From Candidatus Krumholzibacteriota bacterium (GTDB taxonomy: Bacteria > Krumholzibacteriota > Krumholzibacteriia > JAJRXK01), in the NCBI GenBank assembly GCA_963764625.1, contig CAVXTH010000006.1, positions 320,001-384,000 on the forward strand: a DNA stretch of 64,000 nucleotides, written 5' to 3'. Shown here in pieces: positions 55,523 to 64,000 of the stretch; the first letter of the stretch is position 1, and each line of letters begins with the position of its first letter. The notes below the pieces were generated by a model. That model worked only from the letters and a program-made list of their open reading frames with translations. It ran no database searches and was not told the origin of the DNA. Both the position numbers and the translations under genes were made by a program.

Positions 55523-57253
55523 ATGACGGCCATTCCCGCATTCGTCGCCGAGAAACTGGAGCAGGAGACCTGGATCGTCCCCGCCCCAGCGCGCGCGCGT
55601 TCCAACCGCCCGTCTCTTCTGGTCTGTTTCGCCAATACCTATGAAGTCGGCATGTCCAATCTGGGCTTCCAGTACATTTGGAGTACATGTCTGGATGGCA
55701 TGAAACTCCCGGTAGACCGTCTCTTTCTCGAAGCCGAAACTCCGGGCTCGCCCCTGTCCTTCGAGACGCGCCGTCCCTTGGCCGAGCATCGGCTGAGCCT
55801 GTGGAGCATTTCCTTCGAGGAGGATTATTTCCATTTCGCACGCATGTTGCACGAGGCCGGAGTTCCTCTCAGGGCCAATGCTCGCGGAGAGGACGATCTC
55901 TTCGTGCTGGCCGGCGGCCCCGCCGTCACCGCGAATCCAGAAACTCTCGCGCTGCTCTGCGATGCCATCGTCATCGGTGACGGTGAACCGTTCATGGACG
56001 AGGCCGGGCCGCTGCTCGAGGAATTCGCGGAGGGACGAATCACCCGCCACGAGTTCGCTGATGCGCTGTCGTCGATCCAGGGCGTATATCTCCCGGCGCG
56101 TATGCACAACCCCACCCTCCACGAGCATTCCGTGAAGGACCAAGCTCATCCGGAGCTGATCGTCAAACGCACCGAGACCGCGGAGGTGGTGGACGACCTG
56201 ATCAATTCAAGAGTCATCACTCCCAGCAGCGTCTTCTCTAACGTGATGATGGCGGAGATGACGCGCGGGTGTGGCTGGGGCTGCCGATTCTGTCTCGCTG
56301 GCTACTGGTATCGGCCGGTGCGCTTTTCCAACGCGGACGCCCTCATCGAGCGGCTCGATCGCACGGATTTGAAGGGGGGATCGGTGGGCCTGGTCGGCGC
56401 CTGCCTGGTGGATCACCCCGAGCTGGATCGCGTCACCACGAAACTGGCCGAGAAGGGAATTTCCTACACCACCAGCAGCCTCCGTCTGGAACTTCTCGAT
56501 GCGCAGCGCGTGGACAAGATCGTACAGGGTGGAATGCGCACCATCACGATCGCTCCCGAGGCTGGCACTTCGCGGCTGCGCAGCGTGATCCGCAAGACCA
56601 TGTCGCACGAGGACATCCTGGAGAGCGGCCGCATCCTGGCCGCCAAGGGGGTCAAGAAGCTCAAGCTCTACTTCATGATGGGACTGCCCACCGAGAGCGA
56701 CGAAGACATGGAGGGGATCGTCTCCCTGGCAAAGGATCTCAAGCGGGTCTTCGCCGAAGTGGGCCACCATCCACGGCTCTCTTTGAGCGTCAGTCCGCTC
56801 GTGCCCAAGCCCTGGACCGCGTTCCAGTGGAAGGCGATGATCGGCAAGGACGTGCATGCGCGAAGGGCGAAGATCCTCTTGCGGGCACTCGATCGCGTCT
56901 CCGGTGTAAGAGTGACGGTGGGAACATCCAAGGAGACGTATCGGCAGAGCATTCTGTCCCTGGGGGACCGGAGGGTGTCGGAAGCCCTGATTCGCTGGGC
57001 GGAGGGCTCCTCGCCCACCTGGAATCGTGCCCTGCGGGATGCTGGGGTGGACGTGGATTGGCTGCTCTTCGCCGAAAAGCCGGATGACTATGGCTTCCCT
57101 TGGGATTTTGTGAAGACGGCGGTCACCCGACGTTACCTCCTGAAGGAATATCATCGCAGTTTTCGCGATGGGGGTGAGCTAGGGGAACGGGCGTGGGAGG
57201 CGCGTCAGAGAGAACTCGAGGGGCGCGCAATCCTGGCGCGTACCAGCGCTTGA
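55523..57253 (+). CDS. Radical SAM protein (TIGR03960/YgiQ-related)
   Basis: NTYEVGMSNLG, CxxxCxxC (RGCGWGCRFC), SSLR, IAPEAG, KLYFMMGLP, VPKPWT. Confidence 0.88.
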   Translation: MTAIPAFVAEKLEQETWIVPAPARARSNRPSLLVCFANTYEVGMSNLGFQYIWSTCLDGMKLPVDRLFLEAETPGSPLSFETRRPLAEHRLSLWSISFEEDYFHFARMLHEAGVPLRANARGEDDLFVLAGGPAVTANPETLALLCDAIVIGDGEPFMDEAGPLLEEFAEGRITRHEFADALSSIQGVYLPARMHNPTLHEHSVKDQAHPELIVKRTETAEVVDDLINSRVITPSSVFSNVMMAEMTRGCGWGCRFCLAGYWYRPVRFSNADALIERLDRTDLKGGSVGLVGACLVDHPELDRVTTKLAEKGISYTTSSLRLELLDAQRVDKIVQGGMRTITIAPEAGTSRLRSVIRKTMSHEDILESGRILAAKGVKKLKLYFMMGLPTESDEDMEGIVSLAKDLKRVFAEVGHHPRLSLSVSPLVPKPWTAFQWKAMIGKDVHARRAKILLRALDRVSGVRVTVGTSKETYRQSILSLGDRRVSEALIRWAEGSSPTWNRALRDAGVDVDWLLFAEKPDDYGFPWDFVKTAVTRRYLLKEYHRSFRDGGELGERAWEARQRELEGRAILARTSA

Positions 57254-57333
57254 CGCGAGACGCTGCGTGCGCTCAATTCGGAGTCTCCTCGACTCACTGC
57301 CGGCTGGACCTTCATCGAGGTGAATCAATCACC

Positions 57334-58815
57334 ATGACGGATTCGATTCTTGTCGCGCGATGGGCCTCGACCCTTGCCCTGCTCGTTCTGCTCGCCGGCG
57401 GAACCTGCGGGCATGCCTTTGCCCAGGACATTCCGGCTCCCGATCCCACGCGGCCCTGGCTGGCCAGGGGCGACAGTCTCGTCGCCGCCGGGAAGGGAGA
57501 GCTCGCACGGGACGCCTACCGCGAGGCCCTCAAGAAGCACTCCGACGACGTGGAGCTGTGGCTGCGCGTGGCGGCGGTGGAGACGGCGCTGGGAGACCCC
57601 AGGCGGGGCATGGACGCGGCCCAGAAAGCGCGCAAGCTCGACCCCAAGGGCGCCGATCCCTATCTGATGTTGGCTCAGGCTCAATTCGCCGCGGGAGACG
57701 CGTCGACCGCGCTCAAGACCCTCGAGGCCGGAGTGAGTACCCACGAGGATGACATCCCCCTGCTGGAGGCGCTCGTCACCGTAAAGATCGCGATGAAGAA
57801 ATGGGCCGAGGCCGGGGGGTTGTTGCGCCAGCTGATTCTGCTCGATGGGTCCAATCCCATGTACTACATGGATCTCGGACGGATTCAGCATCGAGTGGGA
57901 GAGATGAACGACGCCTATTCCAATCTGAAGAAAGCGCTCAATCTGGGCGCGTCCCGTTCGGAGGCGCTCGCGCTCTTGGGACACGTCTGTCTGGGGCTCG
58001 GGCGCATGGACGAGGCCAAGAAAGACCTCGAGGAGAGTCTCTCGATCGAGCCCAGCTCCGAGGCATGGTCCGGCCTGGCCGGATATCACTTCCTGCAGGG
58101 AGATGCCGTCGAGGCGGAGAAGGCCTTCCGCGAGTCGCTGCGACTCGATCCCAACGATCCCGACTCGTGGTTCAATCTGGGGAATGCCCTGGTGGTGCAG
58201 GAGAAGATGGCGGAGGCGGAAGAAGCTTACCGCAAGGTCATCAAGCTCGATCCGGGACCGTCATCCGCCGCGGCGAGGCTGAATCTGGGCGTCCTCCTGC
58301 TCACCCGGGAAAAGGTGGACGAAGCGAAGCAGAGCCTGAGCGAGGCCGCCCGTCTCAATCCCCAGTTGCCGGGACCGCACCTGCATCTCGCACGCATCGC
58401 CGGAGCGCGGTTTCATTACGAGGAAGCCAAGAATCACTATCTGGACTATCGCAAGGTCGTTCCCGATGAGAAGGAGAAGAAGCGAATCGATGGCGTCCTC
58501 GCCGATCTCGAAGCCAAGATCAAGGAGAGGAACTCGGCGTTGAGCCTTGGCGAAGTTCACCTCCTGCAGATCATGACGCCGGAGAAAGCTCAGGCGGAAA
58601 AGGCGCGGGCGCGAGTGCAGCAGGGTGAGGATTTCTATTCGGTGGGCGAGTCGCTGAGCAAACTGGCCAAGATCACCGGCATCGACATCGGCTACGTGGA
58701 TCCCGCTTCGCTCAATCAGGGATTTCGGAGCGCCATTGTCGCGCTGAAAGTAGGCGATCTCAGCGAAGTCGTGAAAGGTCCCAACGGTTGGTATCTGTTC
58801 CAACGCGTGGAGTGA
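57334..58815 (+). CDS. Exported TPR protein with C-terminal parvulin (PpiC-like) domain
   Basis: Signal peptide ...HAFA-Q; many TPRs; GEDF...DIGY...LKVGDLSEVV..NGWYLF. Confidence 0.82.
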   Translation: MTDSILVARWASTLALLVLLAGGTCGHAFAQDIPAPDPTRPWLARGDSLVAAGKGELARDAYREALKKHSDDVELWLRVAAVETALGDPRRGMDAAQKARKLDPKGADPYLMLAQAQFAAGDASTALKTLEAGVSTHEDDIPLLEALVTVKIAMKKWAEAGGLLRQLILLDGSNPMYYMDLGRIQHRVGEMNDAYSNLKKALNLGASRSEALALLGHVCLGLGRMDEAKKDLEESLSIEPSSEAWSGLAGYHFLQGDAVEAEKAFRESLRLDPNDPDSWFNLGNALVVQEKMAEAEEAYRKVIKLDPGPSSAAARLNLGVLLLTREKVDEAKQSLSEAARLNPQLPGPHLHLARIAGARFHYEEAKNHYLDYRKVVPDEKEKKRIDGVLADLEAKIKERNSALSLGEVHLLQIMTPEKAQAEKARARVQQGEDFYSVGESLSKLAKITGIDIGYVDPASLNQGFRSAIVALKVGDLSEVVKGPNGWYLFQRVE

Positions 58816-58831: not shown

Positions 58832-60916
58832 ATGAGCGACAATCCCACGCCTCGCTTCCGTCTGGACAGCTCCGTGCAGTACCTGAAGGGAGTGGGCCCT
58901 CGACGATCGCAGATACTCAAGCGCCTCGGGATCGAGCGGGGCGAGGATCTGCTCTATCACCTTCCCCACGACTATCTAACACGGTCTTCCCTGAAGTCCC
59001 TCCGCACACTCCGCGATGGGGAAAGCGCGACGGTCTGCGGCCAAGTGATCGACGTGCAGAGCCGCCGCATCCGGGGTGGAAGGACGCTGGTGAGCGTGGT
59101 GCTCATGGAAAGCGGCATGCAGCTTCATCTGAATTGGTTCAACGCGCCGTGGGTCGCCAAGCAGCTGCGGATCGGGGAAGAACTCGTGGTCTCGGGCAGA
59201 GCGGGGTCGTACCGCAAGCAGCTCCAGATGGTCAATCCCGCGTTCGAAGAGGCGAGCCAGGACGGAGAGCTGCTCTCGGGTCGCTTGATGCCGTGTTATC
59301 CGCTCACTGCCGGAATTTCGCAGACGATCATGCGCAAGCTCGTGCGCCGGGCGCTGGACGAATTACGCGTGGAGCTGGTCGACCCGCTGCCTGCGAGCTG
59401 GCGCGAGGAAGAGGATCTCCTGGGGCTGAAGGACGCGATGGAGGCGGTCCACCGCCCCGAGGGTCCAGAGGCCGCGGCGCGGGGACGCAAGCGTCTGGCG
59501 TACGACGAGGCGCTGGCCTTGCAGCTCTCGGTGGGAGTGCGCCGCCGAAAACTGTTGCGGCGCAGTGCCGCGGTGAGACTGGGAGAATTGGGGGAGCGGT
59601 CCGGCCGCTACCTCGAAGACCTCGGTTTCACTCTCACCTCCGCCCAACGGCGCGTTCTGAAGACTCTTCGCCAGGACTTGATGCGAGAGGTCGCGATGCA
59701 TCGCCTGTTGCAGGGCGACGTGGGAAGCGGCAAGACGCTAGTCGCGCTCCTGGCGATGATCTGGATGACGGAGAGCGGAGCGCAGGCGGCCTTCATGGCG
59801 CCGACCGAGATCCTGGCCCAACAGCACGCGGCGCGCAACGTGCCGCTCCTAGAGAGAATTGGGATTCGCGCCGCGATCTTGACGGGAAGCACGCCCGCGG
59901 CGAAGCGCCGCGAGATCCTCGCGGAGCTAAAGTCCGGGAATCTCCAGATCATATTCGGTACGCACGCGCTCATCCAGGAGAGCGTGGAATTCGATCGACT
60001 GGGTTTGATCGTCGTCGACGAGCAACACCGCTTTGGGGTTCTCCAGCGCGCGGCGCTCTCGGGAGAAGGAGCGCATTTGTTGGTGATGTCGGCCACTCCG
60101 ATCCCACGGAGCTTGGCGCTGACCGTTTTCGCCGACCTCGATCTATCGATCCTGGACGAAAAGCCGCCCGGACGCACACCGGTGGTCACTCGGGTCGTGG
60201 GGGAAGCTGCCCTCGCCAAGGTCTACGAACACCTGCGAGGGCGCGTTGAAAAGGGAGAGCGCGCGTACCTGGTATACCCTCTGGTGGAAGAGACCGAGGG
60301 CAATGACCTGGCCAGCGCGAGCGCGGCCTTCGAGGAGCTGAGCGCGGGACCGCTGCGCGGTCTCCGTCTCGGGCTCTTGCACGGGAGAATGTCGGCGCGC
60401 GAGAAGGAGCACATCCGTGAGGCCTTCAGCGAAGGAAGTTTGGACGTGCTCGTGGCCACTACGGTCGTCGAAGTTGGAGTCGACGTGCCGGAGGCCACCG
60501 TCATGGTCGTCCACCACGCCGAACGATTCGGACTCGCCCAGCTCCATCAACTCCGCGGACGCGTGGGAAGAGGGGCCAGGAAATCCTGGTGCGTGCTGGT
60601 TGCCAGTCGCGAGATCGGTGAGGCGGGAAGCCGGCGTTTGAAACTCCTCGCCAGCTGTCACGACGGCTTCCAGTTGGCCGAGGCCGACCTGAAGGAGCGG
60701 GGAATGGGAGACCTTCTCGGCTTGCGCCAGCACGGGCTGGCTCCCTTCCGTGTCCTGAACCCTCTGAGCGACGGGGTCCTGGTGGAAGCCGCGCGAGACC
60801 GGGCCGAACGGGTCCTTCAGGAAGATCCCGAGCTGCGGTTTCCCGCCCATCGCTCGCTGAGCCTCTGGTTGGATCACCTGGGTTCGCGCAATCCGTTCTG
60901 GAGTGCGACGGGCTGA
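58832..60916 (+). CDS. recG: ATP-dependent DNA helicase RecG
   Basis: LKGVGP, LQGDVGSGKT, DEQHRFG, MSATPIPR, QLHQLRGRVGRG. Confidence 0.97.
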   Translation: MSDNPTPRFRLDSSVQYLKGVGPRRSQILKRLGIERGEDLLYHLPHDYLTRSSLKSLRTLRDGESATVCGQVIDVQSRRIRGGRTLVSVVLMESGMQLHLNWFNAPWVAKQLRIGEELVVSGRAGSYRKQLQMVNPAFEEASQDGELLSGRLMPCYPLTAGISQTIMRKLVRRALDELRVELVDPLPASWREEEDLLGLKDAMEAVHRPEGPEAAARGRKRLAYDEALALQLSVGVRRRKLLRRSAAVRLGELGERSGRYLEDLGFTLTSAQRRVLKTLRQDLMREVAMHRLLQGDVGSGKTLVALLAMIWMTESGAQAAFMAPTEILAQQHAARNVPLLERIGIRAAILTGSTPAAKRREILAELKSGNLQIIFGTHALIQESVEFDRLGLIVVDEQHRFGVLQRAALSGEGAHLLVMSATPIPRSLALTVFADLDLSILDEKPPGRTPVVTRVVGEAALAKVYEHLRGRVEKGERAYLVYPLVEETEGNDLASASAAFEELSAGPLRGLRLGLLHGRMSAREKEHIREAFSEGSLDVLVATTVVEVGVDVPEATVMVVHHAERFGLAQLHQLRGRVGRGARKSWCVLVASREIGEAGSRRLKLLASCHDGFQLAEADLKERGMGDLLGLRQHGLAPFRVLNPLSDGVLVEAARDRAERVLQEDPELRFPAHRSLSLWLDHLGSRNPFWSATG

Positions 60917-60928
60917 ATTGCTGCCCGA

Positions 60929-60944
60929 TGGTCCGAACCTTGCT
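60929..60944 (+). promoter_or_regulatory. Sigma54 -24/-12 promoter (zinc-ribbon/RomX-like gene)
   Basis: TGGTCCGAACCTTGCT = GG-N10-GC with TTGCT. Confidence 0.6.
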
Positions 60945-61030
60945 GCTTCAGGCCACCACAAGGAACTAGAAGCCCCCCGAGAGGCCGCGCCGGCCGTCAA
61001 TGGGGGAGTCTTTAGACACGTGGAGAGGCC

Positions 61031-61894
61031 ATGATCGTCCAGTGTGCAGAATGCAAGACTTCCTACCGGCTTCAGGCCGAACTCGTTCCCCCGCGAAGGG
61101 TCCAGACGCGATGCAACCGCTGTGGACACGTCTTTGCCATCGTTGGACCAGAAGCAGGCGGCCAAGGTTTCACGGCGAGTCGCGGACCGAACGCAGCGGC
61201 CTCGATCGCACCGCAGGCACCGACTTCGTCCAACCGCTACGGTGATGTTGATCTCGGCGCGGCGCCAGCGCGAGAAGAGACCCGTGCCGCTCCACCGTTC
61301 GTACCGCCTCTGGCCCCCGCTCCGCAGGCTCCGGCCCGCGCGGCGAATCCCACGCCCCCCCAAGCTGCTCCGGCTCCGGCCGCGGCCCACGACTCCGCTC
61401 CGATTTCCGGCGGGCGGGACATGGATCTCCAGCTCGAGAGGTCCGAAGGCTTTCCGGCGGCGTCTCCACGGAACCGTGATGTGGCGGGCGTGAATTCCCC
61501 GGCTGCTGCGCCCATGGAGCCGGCGCGTCGCTCGGGTGTCGCGCTCGAGACTCCTCCCAATGGCACTCCCTCCTCGTTCCGCGAACTGGATCTGGACGAG
61601 ACCGCTCTCAACGCAGCTCCCAGCGATGAGGCTCCGGCCAACCCCGAGGAGCAACGCAAGCACGACAAGTCGCGTCGTCTCGCCCGGGCCCTGGTGAGCG
61701 ACATCCTGGTCTACAACCGCGCCAAGCGCGATGCCGCGCTCCAGTCCGGCAAGTTGGTGCAGGAGCTGGGTCCGGAGATCAAGAAGTCCTGGGAAGTCTA
61801 CAAGGAGCGCGTGACCCCCGAGGTGGCGAACTCCACCAACCATTTTCGCGAGGCTCTGAATGACATCCTGGCGGATGGTCAGCCGATTTTCTGA
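61031..61894 (+). CDS. MJ0042-type zinc ribbon + Pro/Ala linker + RomX-like helical C-terminal domain
   Basis: CAEC...CNRC; C-terminal RRLARALVSDILVYN...YKERV...NHFREALNDIL. Confidence 0.8.
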   Translation: MIVQCAECKTSYRLQAELVPPRRVQTRCNRCGHVFAIVGPEAGGQGFTASRGPNAAASIAPQAPTSSNRYGDVDLGAAPAREETRAAPPFVPPLAPAPQAPARAANPTPPQAAPAPAAAHDSAPISGGRDMDLQLERSEGFPAASPRNRDVAGVNSPAAAPMEPARRSGVALETPPNGTPSSFRELDLDETALNAAPSDEAPANPEEQRKHDKSRRLARALVSDILVYNRAKRDAALQSGKLVQELGPEIKKSWEVYKERVTPEVANSTNHFREALNDILADGQPIF

Positions 61895-61933
61895 AAGTAC
61901 AATAGTTTAACACTTTCATTTAAAGTGAAAACT

Positions 61934-61968
61934 GAAAAACCCCGGCACCGTAGGCGCCGGGGTTTTTC
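61934..61968. terminator. Bidirectional Rho-independent terminator between convergent genes
   Basis: GAAAAACCCCGGCACC-GTA-GGCGCCGGGGTTTTTC, flanked by A and T tracts. Confidence 0.85.
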
Positions 61969-61989
61969 GTGCTGCCAAGCGAGGCGAGT

Positions 61990-62442
61990 TCAGTCGCTCT
62001 TGTCCCACTTCTTGTCGCTGATCTCCTGGAGGATCCCGTCGATCTGGCCGCGGATCCGCATGTTCTGGTCCGGCTCGAAAAGAGCTTTCTTCACGCGACC
62101 GTACTTGTCCTTCTTCACGAAGCGCAGGGACTGGAGCGAGCTCATGGGGACGAGGATGTCCTTGCAGACCTGGACCTCGACGTCGCGGCCCTCGACCGTT
62201 TGCGGGGGATTGTTATCCGGGTGCATCCCCAGGCCCCACCCGTGCACGACCATGGAGCAGATGAGGGCGCGGAAGGTGTTCTGCCCCTGACTGGTCTCGA
62301 GGTCGATGCTGCCTTGCACCTTCTGGATGACTCCGTCGACCACGTAGCTGAGCTTCCGCGCGACCGAAGGCGAGACCTTCATGTTCAAGAGTCGGCTGAA
62401 CATTTCGGCCAGAATTTTGTCCGTGCTACTCGTTTTCTCCAC
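61990..62442 (-). CDS. Hypothetical protein (150 aa)
   Basis: GC3-rich codon usage, GGAGG upstream of GTG, ends at a terminator; no family recognised. Confidence 0.75.
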   Translation of the reverse strand: MEKTSSTDKILAEMFSRLLNMKVSPSVARKLSYVVDGVIQKVQGSIDLETSQGQNTFRALICSMVVHGWGLGMHPDNNPPQTVEGRDVEVQVCKDILVPMSSLQSLRFVKKDKYGRVKKALFEPDQNMRIRGQIDGILQEISDKKWDKSD

Positions 62443-62532
62443 CGGGAGCCTCCTCGCGGCTTCGCGAGTCGGGAATTGACGGCCGCTCTCTCTCGCGTGA
62501 GGGAGGGAGGGCGAAGGGGTCTCCCGAAGGAA

Positions 62533-62548
62533 TGCAAGGGTGGTGCCC
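62533..62548 (-). promoter_or_regulatory. Sigma54 -24/-12 promoter (minus-strand hypothetical gene)
   Basis: Reverse complement GGGCACCACCCTTGCA matches GGCAC-N5-TTGCA. Confidence 0.65.
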
Positions 62549-62694
62549 GAAGTTCAGGGACCCCGTGGCTGGCTAAAGCTCGGTTCCGATCGGCCGATTG
62601 CGCCCGGCGGGCAAGGGAGAGCCGGCCCCGGGAGGGGTGCATCCTTCCCCGAAAGGGTGGGAGGAGGACCAAGACGGAGCCTGCCTGCCCAGGA

Positions 62695-62710
62695 TGGCAT
62701 GGAGATTGCC
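62695..62710 (+). promoter_or_regulatory. Sigma54 -24/-12 promoter (mglA-like gene)
   Basis: TGGCATGGAGATTGCC matches TGGCA-N6-TTGC. Confidence 0.65.
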
Positions 62711-62788
62711 TTGGATCTCAGTGCGCGAAGTCGATCGCTCTTCGCCGCAAATGTGGCGAGACGCATTCCACGATCCCTGCGAGACACC

Positions 62789-64000
62789 ATGGTCGTCTAT
62801 AACTACAGCGGTAAGGAAATCAACGCGAAGATCGTCTATTACGGTCCCGCGCTCAGCGGTAAGACCACCAATCTGGAGTGGATCTACTCGAAGATCCCTC
62901 TGGAGTACTCGGGCAAGATGATCTCGCTGCGAACCCAAACTGACCGCACGATTTTCTTCGATTTCCTCCCCTTGGAGCTGGGGCTGATCGATGGCTTCAA
63001 GACTCGCTTCATGCTCTACACGGTACCCGGGCAGGTCTACTACAACGCCACCCGGAAGATGGTGCTCAAGGGAGCCGATGGAGTGGTCTTCGTCGCGGAC
63101 AGCGAAGAGGACCGGATGGAGGACAACCTGGAGAGTCTGCAAAACCTCAAGGACAATCTGGAAGAGATCGGCCTGGATCCTCACACCATTCCGATCGTCT
63201 TGCAGTGGAACAAGCGTGATTTACCCTCAACGGTCGAAACCGAGCAGCTGGAGCGCCAACTCAACCCGGAAGGCCATCCCTCCTTCGCCGCCTGCGCGCT
63301 AACCGGCGAGGGCGTGTACGAATCCCTGCACCAGATCAGCCGCATGATCTACCGCAATCTCACCACCGAAGAGGGAATGGTTCCTGCGGCGAACCAGAAT
63401 CCCGAGAACGTTTCCTCGCTCTTTGGCGAGGACATCGAGGCCCGCCTGCGGGACGTGGACTACCCGGACCCGACCCTCAAGGACTCCGTGACTCTGCAGG
63501 GTTCTCCCACGGTCGGCGGCGCGAGCTCGAAGGATACGGATGTGCTGAGCTCGATCCTGGGCAGCTTGAACTCCCCAGTCCTGAACGAGGACAAGAGCGA
63601 ACAATCTCAGGAGAGTGCCGAGACGGTGGCGGTGGGGGCGCGGACGGCGGCTGCGGCTGGCGAGGGACAGTCCCCCGTCGGTTCACAATCAGGATTCGAA
63701 ACGAAAGGCCCAGAGAACATGTCCCAGAGGCCCACCCCATCCGGCGATTCGCTGGCAGAGCGTCAGATTGGCTCGGATCAGTCCAGGAGCCAGCCCACGC
63801 GCCCGATCCAGCCCGCGCCGACAAGAGCTCACTCCCAAGAATCTCCTCTCGTGGACGAAGCAGTGGCGGATCTCGTCGACAGCCTCTTTAGCCCCAGTGA
63901 AGAGGGTGCAAGCGAAGAGCCCGTCGAGAACGACGAACTGGCCTATGAATCCGACTTTGGCCGCATGGTCGATCTGGGACCGGACTCCCAGGCGGGGAAG
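62789..64000 (+). CDS. mglA: MglA-family small Ras-like GTPase with long acidic low-complexity C-terminal extension (3' truncated; absent from the ORF track)
   Basis: Manual translation MVVYNYSGKEINAKIVYYGPALSGKTTNL...TDRTIFFDFLPL...LYTVPGQVYY...GADGVVFVADS...WNKRDL; frame stays open to the window end. Confidence 0.92.
   Translation, partial: MVVYNYSGKEINAKIVYYGPALSGKTTNLEWIYSKIPLEYSGKMISLRTQTDRTIFFDFLPLELGLIDGFKTRFMLYTVPGQVYYNATRKMVLKGADGVVFVADSEEDRMEDNLESLQNLKDNLEEIGLDPHTIPIVLQWNKRDLPSTVETEQLERQLNPEGHPSFAACALTGEGVYESLHQISRMIYRNLTTEEGMVPAANQNPENVSSLFGEDIEARLRDVDYPDPTLKDSVTLQGSPTVGGASSKDTDVLSSILGSLNSPVLNEDKSEQSQESAETVAVGARTAAAAGEGQSPVGSQSGFETKGPENMSQRPTPSGDSLAERQIGSDQSRSQPTRPIQPAPTRAHSQESPLVDEAVADLVDSLFSPSEEGASEEPVENDELAYESDFGRMVDLGPDSQAGK

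Follow-up and report, generated by a model that had tools for sequence, protein, structure and literature searches.

A conserved gene module with sigma54-type promoter elements, a long-tailed MglA paralog and a zinc ribbon-RomX protein in Candidatus Krumholzibacteriota

The locus and its gene products

The MglA, MglB and RomR-RomX proteins form, to our knowledge, the best-studied front-rear polarity switch of bacteria, and nearly all that is known of it comes from Myxococcus. Here we describe a stretch of 64,000 nucleotides from a Candidatus Krumholzibacteriota bacterium (hereafter the window; C6:320001-384000 of the source genome), whose last 3 kb, downstream of recG (58832-60916), is filled by three genes. 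These encode a 287-residue protein in which a linker joins a zinc ribbon to a RomX domain (ZnR-RomX), a 150-residue protein (p150), and a GTPase of the MglA type (MglA2). An initial annotation, made from the sequence alone, had placed such a switch outside Myxococcota, and the host does lie outside that phylum, given its Krumholzibacteria labels.

The gene for ZnR-RomX, a protein with matches in both Pfam and the Protein Data Bank (PDB), occupies 61031-61894 of the forward strand, recG being the last gene before it. It converges with the gene for p150 (61990-62442, reverse strand), a member of a lineage-restricted family whose GTG start is preceded by GAGGAGG. Between the two sits a hairpin (61934-61968) with a 16-bp stem, an A run on one side and a T run on the other, likely a bidirectional terminator shared by both genes. 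p150 and mglA2 diverge from a 346-bp intergenic region; mglA2 starts on the forward strand at an ATG at 62789, 895 bp past the end of the ZnR-RomX gene, and is cut by the window end (62789-64000), the complete gene (C6:382789-384306) encoding 505 amino acids. Because the first two genes converge on the hairpin and the latter two diverge, the three are neighbours and not one operon. An Rfam scan of 60800-64000 returned no family at gathering score.

The GTPase had been annotated as an MglA-type protein with an intact G1, an intrinsic arginine, a glutamine and G4, and all of these motifs were found as described in the frame that starts at 62789: G1 is YYGPALSGKTTN, switch 1 is TQTDRTIF, switch 2 is YTVPGQVY and G4 is QWNKRDLP. 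Each of the hallmarks of an MglA of the Group 1 type, which has an intrinsic arginine finger, is present, namely a P-loop of the form GxxxxGK[ST], the TDRT arginine, TxPGQ with a threonine in the place of the aspartate of Ras, and NKxD, and the catalytic-motif positions are invariant among 17 long-tailed orthologues. The closest solved relative is MglA of M. xanthus (5ymx_A, E 1.4e-70; residues 3-191 against 3-191, free of gaps), and Thermus MglA (3t12_A) matches at E 5.5e-68. The G domain (residues 1-195, nt 62789-63373) is followed by a tail of 310 residues (196-505), and at 505 residues MglA2 is thus unlike the single-domain MglA proteins of about 195. The tail is acidic (net charge -36), rich in Ser, Glu, Ala, Leu, Pro, Gly and Asp, matches no Pfam family and is probably disordered. 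An alignment of the 17 orthologues picks out islands within it (SLFG..I, ..LVD..L, FGRMVDL, ELITDP and a C-terminal IEVPVTLD...RIVLNL), motifs that are conserved across families; in ELITDP, P444 is invariant and D443 nearly so.

That no mglB lies upstream of this GTPase is correct within the window but not for the genome as a whole. A genome-wide search with PF03259 gave one match (C6:296806-297069, 23 kb before the window start), a Roadblock gene followed directly by a gene for a 192-residue MglA, which together form a canonical mglB-mglA operon about 84-86 kb upstream of the module. The canonical MglA and the G domain of MglA2 agree at 110 of 195 positions. Since the genome also has this pair, the GTPase of the window is a second MglA, and what had been described as a "rearranged" MglA switch is instead an additional, paralogous system. 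Two MglA-type matches, one in a frame of about 190-300 residues and one in a long frame of 355-818, occur in 32 of the 41 genomes sampled from the class (source genome included). In a maximum-likelihood tree of 41 G domains, the 17 long-tailed MglAs form a single clade with 100/100 support, separate from all 21 canonical MglAs and set off by a branch of 1.15 changes per site; the paralog is old. The locus-linked proteins of one family, f2 (n = 3), have very long branches in the same tree.

By the definition of PMC4316618, in which a "coupled" MglA has mglB within four genes, MglA2 is an orphan, because no mglB is so close and the sole Roadblock match is that of the distant canonical operon; 59 of the 449 MglA homologues in that survey are orphans, among them M. 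xanthus SofG and Bdellovibrio MglA. MglA2 resembles these orphan proteins in being uncoupled from mglB. SofG carries an N-terminal extension, whereas the extension of MglA2 is C-terminal, acidic and motif-bearing, and its gene belongs to a conserved cluster with a gene for a RomX-domain protein.

ZnR-RomX had been read as a zinc-ribbon protein with a RomX-like C-terminus, and database comparisons bear this out. Its zinc ribbon (residues 1-36, nt 61031-61138; Cys 5, 8, 28 and 31) matches Pfam PF13717 (Zn_ribbon_4) over residues 1-35 at 46.5 bits (cut-off 30.3), TIGR02098 at 38 bits (cut-off 20.9), and the solved ribbon of GltJ/AgmX (PDB 7zok) at E 0.0023. A Pro/Ala-rich linker (about residues 40-205) leads to the RomX domain (residues 212-287, nt 61664-61891), of which residues 212-281 align over 70 residues and without a gap to residues 7-76 of RomX (8zna_A, E 2e-9). 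The start of RomX that the annotation had given, RLARAxxSDIxxYN, was right and is present in this alignment. Judged by sequence similarity, the protein carries a zinc ribbon fused to a genuine homologue of RomX at its C-terminus. The ZnR and RomX matches share one reading frame in relatives, so that the fusion is kept, and the domain is single-copy in the source genome (tblastn, E<=1). Stand-alone short RomX-domain proteins of 70-156 residues were also seen in metagenomes (P0127-P0240), some of them perhaps truncated gene calls, from sources that include Krumholzibacteriia, Eisenbacteria and Gemmatimonadales; these proteins show the RomX domain to be widespread outside Myxococcota.

RomR-RomX had been cited in the initial annotation as the guanine nucleotide exchange factor (GEF) of MglA. 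That RomX of M. xanthus binds MglA solely in its GTP form is agreed, but the GEF role is disputed, as far as the available text of the two reports goes (10.1101/2024.10.31.621274 against 10.1101/2024.02.20.581209). In the portions available of the latter, R11 and R14 of RomX are needed for MglA-GTP binding and D19 for exchange activity; these residues align to R216, R219 and D224 of ZnR-RomX, of which R219 and D224 do not vary among 39 RomX-domain sequences taken from relatives and metagenomes. The same text places the contacts of the RomR receiver domain at RomX helix 3 (L75/R76) and at Trp-87 (10.1101/2024.02.20.581209). The local alignment ends at chain residue 76, with only six residues of ZnR-RomX left (DGQPIF), so a counterpart of Trp-87 is impossible; the R76 counterpart cannot be placed with certainty, the numbering of the alignment differing by one from that of the paper.

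The ribbon end invites comparison with GltJ, whose N-terminal switch is described in the accessible parts of PMC11135422 as a zinc ribbon, an MglA-GTP-binding linker and a GYF domain. There, the ribbon binds its own linker until freed by MglA-GTP, whereupon it binds the C-terminal helix of MglB and raises the efficiency of this GTPase-activating protein (GAP) about fourfold; the ribbon of ZitP, of the same kind, binds PopZ (PMC11135422). ZnR-RomX shares with the GltJ described there the ribbon type, with identical numbering of Cys 5, 8, 28 and 31, a long flexible linker and a predicted MglA-GTP-binding module. It differs from GltJ in having no GYF domain and no membrane part, and its putative MglA-GTP binder is a predicted folded RomX domain, not a linker motif. 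Nor is it a GltJ orthologue, scoring 13.8 bits against the GltJ model NF033761 (cut-off 450), and its Pfam matches include no GYF family. ZnR-RomX is predicted to be a soluble adaptor in which a long linker rich in Pro and Ala ties a zinc ribbon of the GltJ/ZitP type to a C-terminal RomX domain. Pfam found no receiver domain in it.

The 150-residue frame, noted initially as an unknown protein, proved genuine and is conserved: a search at E<=0.001 gave 663 homologues. Searches of Pfam, NCBIfam and PDB sequences returned no match, and none of the 120 homologues listed, all at least 61% identical, carries a functional name. Against 1.84 billion representatives, a p150 profile drew 34 clusters at 50% identity, few of them full-length. 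As these searches show it, the family is narrow, very conserved and lineage-restricted: 59 positions are nearly invariant in 117 sequences, the nearly invariant motifs being QGQNTFRALxCSMxxHGWGxGMHPxNNP, KDIL and GRVxKALFEPDQN, and identity across the class is 51-97%, the highest among the module members, while the linker of ZnR-RomX diverges freely. An AlphaFold2 model built from the 117 sequences (predicted local distance difference test, pLDDT, 81.9; predicted template modelling score, pTM, 0.60) begins with three helices, continues with a four-stranded sheet and a short helix, and closes with a long helix at the C-terminus; an earlier model from 36 sequences (pLDDT 62) was set aside. Foldseek found no match of the model in the PDB at E<=0.001. 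In a wide VIA-align search, the best Z score was 7.9 (9m84_F, 67 residues), the rows listed scarcely reached beyond residues 1-76, and many were sigma-factor region-2 chains with Z 5-6.6. Because such scores are common for helical bundles, no fold is assigned to p150; residues 74-150 are barely covered. Two identities were tried and rejected, Roadblock/MglB (hhalign probability 0.3% against the source genome's own MglB) and RomX (0.2% against the RomX-domain alignment), and in a protein atlas the top feature score was 0.82, below the lead level of 0.9, with no named family.

Synteny and promoter elements

Linkage of the three genes, set beforehand as a test, was kept in 19 of 19 loci from 8 families. 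These loci belong to a first set of 19-20 fetched from relatives; a wider set, anchored on p150 and comprising the best 80 of 200 loci, overlaps the first and consists of kin, hence the two are not independent. In all 19, the order is recG (where the flank reaches), ZnR-RomX, convergent p150, and an MglA-like gene divergent from p150. Of the 67 wider-set loci that extend at least 2.5 kb from p150 on the ZnR-RomX side, 64 have a RomX domain and 52 a zinc ribbon; of the 55 that extend at least 5 kb on the other side, 46 have an MglA-like gene. ZnR-RomX occurs in 39 of the 41 class genomes, the exceptions being one 98% complete and one 64% complete. Sources of p150 homologues are named Candidatus Krumholzibacteria or Krumholzibacteriota; some metagenome-assembled genomes are labelled Latescibacterota or uncultured Fibrobacteraceae, one Chitinivibrionia and one Gemmatimonadales.

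The three genes had also been proposed to lie behind sigma54-type elements. We scored sites of the form TGGCAC/TGGCAY-N5-TTGC over 10 consensus positions, requiring GG and GC, in the 250 nt before each gene, where the background at >=8/10 is 0.068-0.076 per 250 nt. Each gene has such a -24/-12 element: TGGTCCGAACCTTGC before ZnR-RomX (60929-60943, forward; 8/10 with GG and GC kept, 102 nt from the start), GGGCACCACCCTTGC before p150 (62534-62548, reverse; 9/10, 106 nt) and TGGCATGGAGATTGC before mglA2 (62695-62709, forward; 9/10, 94 nt). Over 7.13 Mb of strands, 133 sites of the genome score >=9/10, from which 0.013 are expected in a 346-bp intergenic region; the p150-mglA2 region has two, each directed at its gene, and their placement is therefore not chance. 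All 20 loci of the first set and all 62 of the wider set have a site of >=8/10 before mglA2, at >=9/10 in 59 of the 62, where 0.068 would be expected per 250 nt. For ZnR-RomX the counts are 15 of 19 and 39 of 55, and two of the four first-set loci without a site have a poorly located gene start. When the p150-mglA2 intergenic regions of eight genomes from the family of the source organism were aligned, the sole invariant blocks were the two elements, TGCAA..GGTGCC (the p150 element, on the other strand) and TGGCA.G...ATTGC. The elements are thus conserved across relatives, and the genome encodes a single sigma54 (rpoN; Sigma54_DBD match at 217.9 bits) together with 17 strong matches to enhancer-binding proteins (Sigma54_activat, E<=2e-62). 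Transcription of the module genes by sigma54 is predicted. The only candidate for an activator-binding inverted repeat between the divergent promoters was an 8-nt palindrome (62589-62598), which is not conserved in the family alignment.

These data bear on the simplest alternative, that the genes are neighbours by accident and the sites match by chance, the DNA being GC-rich. Sites with up to two mismatches are indeed no more frequent across the window than in shuffled sequence (46 against 50.35), as such an explanation would have it. Synteny across 8 families, the unbroken occurrence of the mglA2 motif and the restriction of intergenic invariance to the elements all speak against it, and we regard it as highly improbable. 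Instead, the reading we put first, to which we give about an even chance, is that of a conserved sigma54-type module encoding a second, specialised MglA-type GTPase system beside the canonical mglB-mglA.

Further genes accompany the three. A gene for a 283-residue tetratricopeptide repeat (TPR) protein (C6:384469-385320; L002:3180-4031) follows mglA2 directly, some 470 nt beyond the end of the window. Its homologues, found in 67 of the 80 wider-set loci, are full-length and keep the same position, also where an MglA-like gene is lacking, making the TPR protein a candidate fourth member of the module. Outside the source genus, a gene for a protein of 273-303 residues with a C-terminal HATPase_c_2 domain, of the anti-sigma-factor-kinase type, stands between ZnR-RomX and p150 (e.g. 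L027:6119-6967, L035:6106-7017 and L033:4593-5420). It occurs in 32 of 67 wider-set loci, and the N-terminal half of its product looks receiver-like by eye; the source genome does not have it at this place, only 25-35%-identical paralogs elsewhere. Some families have a gene for a major facilitator superfamily (MFS) transporter, or two small genes, between p150 and mglA2. Upstream of recG, the window also encodes (57193-58815, forward) a 540-residue protein that has many TPR repeats and ends in a rotamase domain of the PPIC type.

Loci without an intact GTPase and the question of partners

Several observations weigh against a module built around the second GTPase, and the foremost come from lineages in which this protein is degenerate or missing. 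The f2 GTPases (L030:5118-6035, L039:5347-6165 and L036:4053-4877; about 33% identical to MglA2) have neither the TDRT arginine nor the PGQ glutamine, their NKxD has degenerated to NKQD, NRRE and NRTG, and two of them have GKR in the P-loop; the f2 proteins do retain the C-terminal tail motif, and their genes an upstream sigma54-type site. The locus-linked GTPase of f2 may be a pseudo-GTPase, and since it has lost TDRT, PGQ and NKxD, the GTPase cycle is not always needed. In four genomes of family f6 (G014, G019, G024 and G039; 96-100% complete), p150 is present at E 1e-52 to 1e-56 and a RomX-like match lies within about 1 kb of it, in frames of 142-801 residues; with the query used, no MglA-type GTPase was found in any of the four at E<=0.001. 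Eight loci of the wider set likewise have RomX-like and TPR matches with no MglA-like match, the TPR match ending within about 330 nt of p150 in seven of the eight. From f6 and these eight loci it follows that p150, the RomX-like domain and the TPR protein can persist without MglA.

One could therefore envision an ancestral, MglA-independent core of p150, RomX-like adaptor and TPR protein, acting for example as a scaffold or regulator for another process, with the long-tailed MglA an accessory that was added in most families and whose loss or decay leaves the function of the core intact. The standing of p150 as the most conserved member agrees with such a core, as do its presence in 5 of 5 tested genomes without a normal MglA2 (four of them without any MglA-type match), the adjacency of TPR and RomX-like matches to p150 in the eight MglA-less loci, and the f2 orthologues without catalytic motifs. 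The f6 RomX-like domain, however, is only 31-38% identical as against 43-70% elsewhere, so that loss of MglA2 coincides with a divergence such as a change of partner might bring; the protein described here has kept the helix-1 residues that in M. xanthus touch MglA-GTP; and mglA2 is linked in 46 of 55 loci, its sigma54 motif always present. On balance we consider an MglA-independent core unlikely, and read the module as a core scaffold with the GTPase attached in most lineages, MglA2 as a mere accessory being possible at that same low level.

A further alternative concerns the partner of the RomX domain. Because this domain is single-copy, it may serve the canonical MglA instead of, or besides, MglA2. 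ZnR-RomX would then be the general RomX of the cell, acting chiefly on the canonical MglA/MglB, its RomX domain binding MglA-GTP and its ribbon the C-terminal helix of MglB, and its adjacency to mglA2 would say little. The genome's sole MglB is indeed the canonical one, and the available text of PMC11135422 has the GltJ ribbon bind MglB and raise GAP efficiency. Moreover, at the positions of E111 and E115 of MglA, D111 and E115 are kept by 19 of 19 canonical MglAs scored, and the long-tailed proteins are variable there. The interface of E108, E111 and E115 is an AlphaFold model in the text available of 10.1101/2024.02.20.581209, not a structure, and an attempt to pin the RomX domain to one paralog by these three positions was dropped, as they are too variable here. 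ZnR-RomX was never near mglBA in the loci examined and stands beside the paralog cluster in 19 of 19, and it has a sigma54-type element in common with mglA2, whereas the 10 kb around the canonical operon (C6:290000-300000) has no site of >=9/10. A RomX devoted chiefly to the canonical pair accordingly seems to us an improbable account of the gene.

Two further points weigh against the reading centred on MglA2. No RomR-like partner was identified, in a crude screen that sought a receiver domain with a Pro-rich tail; covering the open reading frames around 22 of the 30 receiver-domain matches, it found no tail with more than 10% proline and does not show absence. And the element before p150 is less regular, a site of >=8/10 being present in 14 of 20 loci and in 32 of 79 of the wider set, with a further 34 loci at 7/10. 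Complex prediction for the G domain of MglA2 and GTP with the RomX domain, and with p150 as partner, gave an ipSAE of 0.00 twice, in runs without controls, and speaks neither for nor against binding.

Proposed working and relation to known systems

In the working that we propose for a specialised second MglA system, an enhancer-binding protein would turn on the sigma54 promoters of mglA2, p150 and the adaptor gene, the motifs, rpoN and the activators all being seen in the genome. MglA2 would alternate between its GTP and GDP forms by means of an intrinsic arginine finger and glutamine, as its motifs suggest, and the RomX domain would bind MglA2-GTP through helix 1, as extrapolated from M. xanthus and consistent with the residues conserved here. 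The zinc ribbon may hold a second partner, in the manner of GltJ (the C-terminal helix of MglB, or its own linker) and of ZitP (PopZ), while by analogy the RomX end of the adaptor would recognise the GTP form of MglA2, of the canonical MglA or of both. Finally, p150, the TPR protein and the motifs of the tail could act in docking, as effectors or as anchors, and so bring the active GTPase to its place in the cell. In a more elaborate form, which we hold tentatively and think doubtful, p150, the TPR protein and ZnR-RomX would make up a lineage-specific positioning scaffold into which the tail motifs of MglA2 plug, deployed by a sigma54 activator, with p150, a fold without a solved relative, taking the regulatory place that Roadblock proteins occupy in every MglA system so far studied, as a GAP-like, guanine nucleotide dissociation inhibitor (GDI)-like or anchor-like element.

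The most likely output would be the positioning of a polar machine, for example a type IV pilus. Among the genes toward which the initial annotation had pointed, mglB and type IV pilus genes are present in the genome, the latter comprising a PilB-like protein, two PilT-like ATPases and PilM at C6:530-576 kb, but no GltJ orthologue was found, the best match (33.7 bits) lying below the cut-off. With pilus genes present and no GltJ orthologue above the cut-off, a pilus-related output is plausible. The pilus region (PilB-like gene at 529922, PilT-like at 531100, a receiver and sigma54-activator gene at 535184-536102, and PilM at 541669) also has sigma54-type sites of 9/10 at C6:529309, 536738 and 541477; given these sites, the pilus genes may share their sigma factor with the module.

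Set against the polarity module of M. xanthus, the Krumholzibacteriota system is alike in its MglA with intrinsic arginine finger and glutamine, in the equivalents of RomX R11, R14 and D19, and in the presence of a canonical mglB-mglA in the genome. It is unlike it in that the GTPase is a second paralog with a 310-residue tail and no adjacent mglB, and in the sigma54-type motifs before the genes. RomX, in M. xanthus a small stand-alone protein acting with RomR, is here the C-terminal domain of a 287-residue zinc-ribbon protein and has no Trp-87 counterpart. RomX-like three-helix domains within multidomain proteins are described in the available parts of 10.1101/2024.02.20.581209, where a zinc-finger domain occurs in 47 of 471 Foldseek hits. 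The zinc finger is tied there to receiver-domain hits, whereas the fusion reported here is receiver-less; a linked MglA paralog, p150 and sigma54 are not discussed in the main-text parts of that report, its supplementary table aside.

Orphan MglA paralogs, the RomX residues, the GltJ switch and RomX-like folds with receiver and zinc-finger domains are thus already in print. Literature searches returned no report linking Krumholzibacteri- with MglA, nor, among the titles listed, one on an MglA paralog with sigma-54 or a C-terminal extension. What appears to be new, in that it was not found in the literature (the supplementary tables of the RomX and RomY papers aside), is a receiver-less zinc ribbon-linker-RomX protein as the conserved partner of a long-tailed MglA paralog, together with the p150 family, the linked TPR gene and the lineage-wide sigma54 elements.

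The module joins in one soluble protein two elements that are separate in Myxococcus, RomX, a binder of MglA-GTP, and a GltJ-type zinc ribbon, and it spans a whole uncultured lineage that also retains an ordinary mglBA pair. The f2 loci, with their degenerate GTPase, and the f6 loci, from which the GTPase is absent, provide built-in comparisons. If the proposed contacts hold, the system would offer a natural experiment in which RomX acts in the absence of its RomR-holding residues, and p150 would be a very conserved new family and a candidate regulator or anchor. A small GTPase switch would then be deployed in these bacteria conditionally rather than constitutively.

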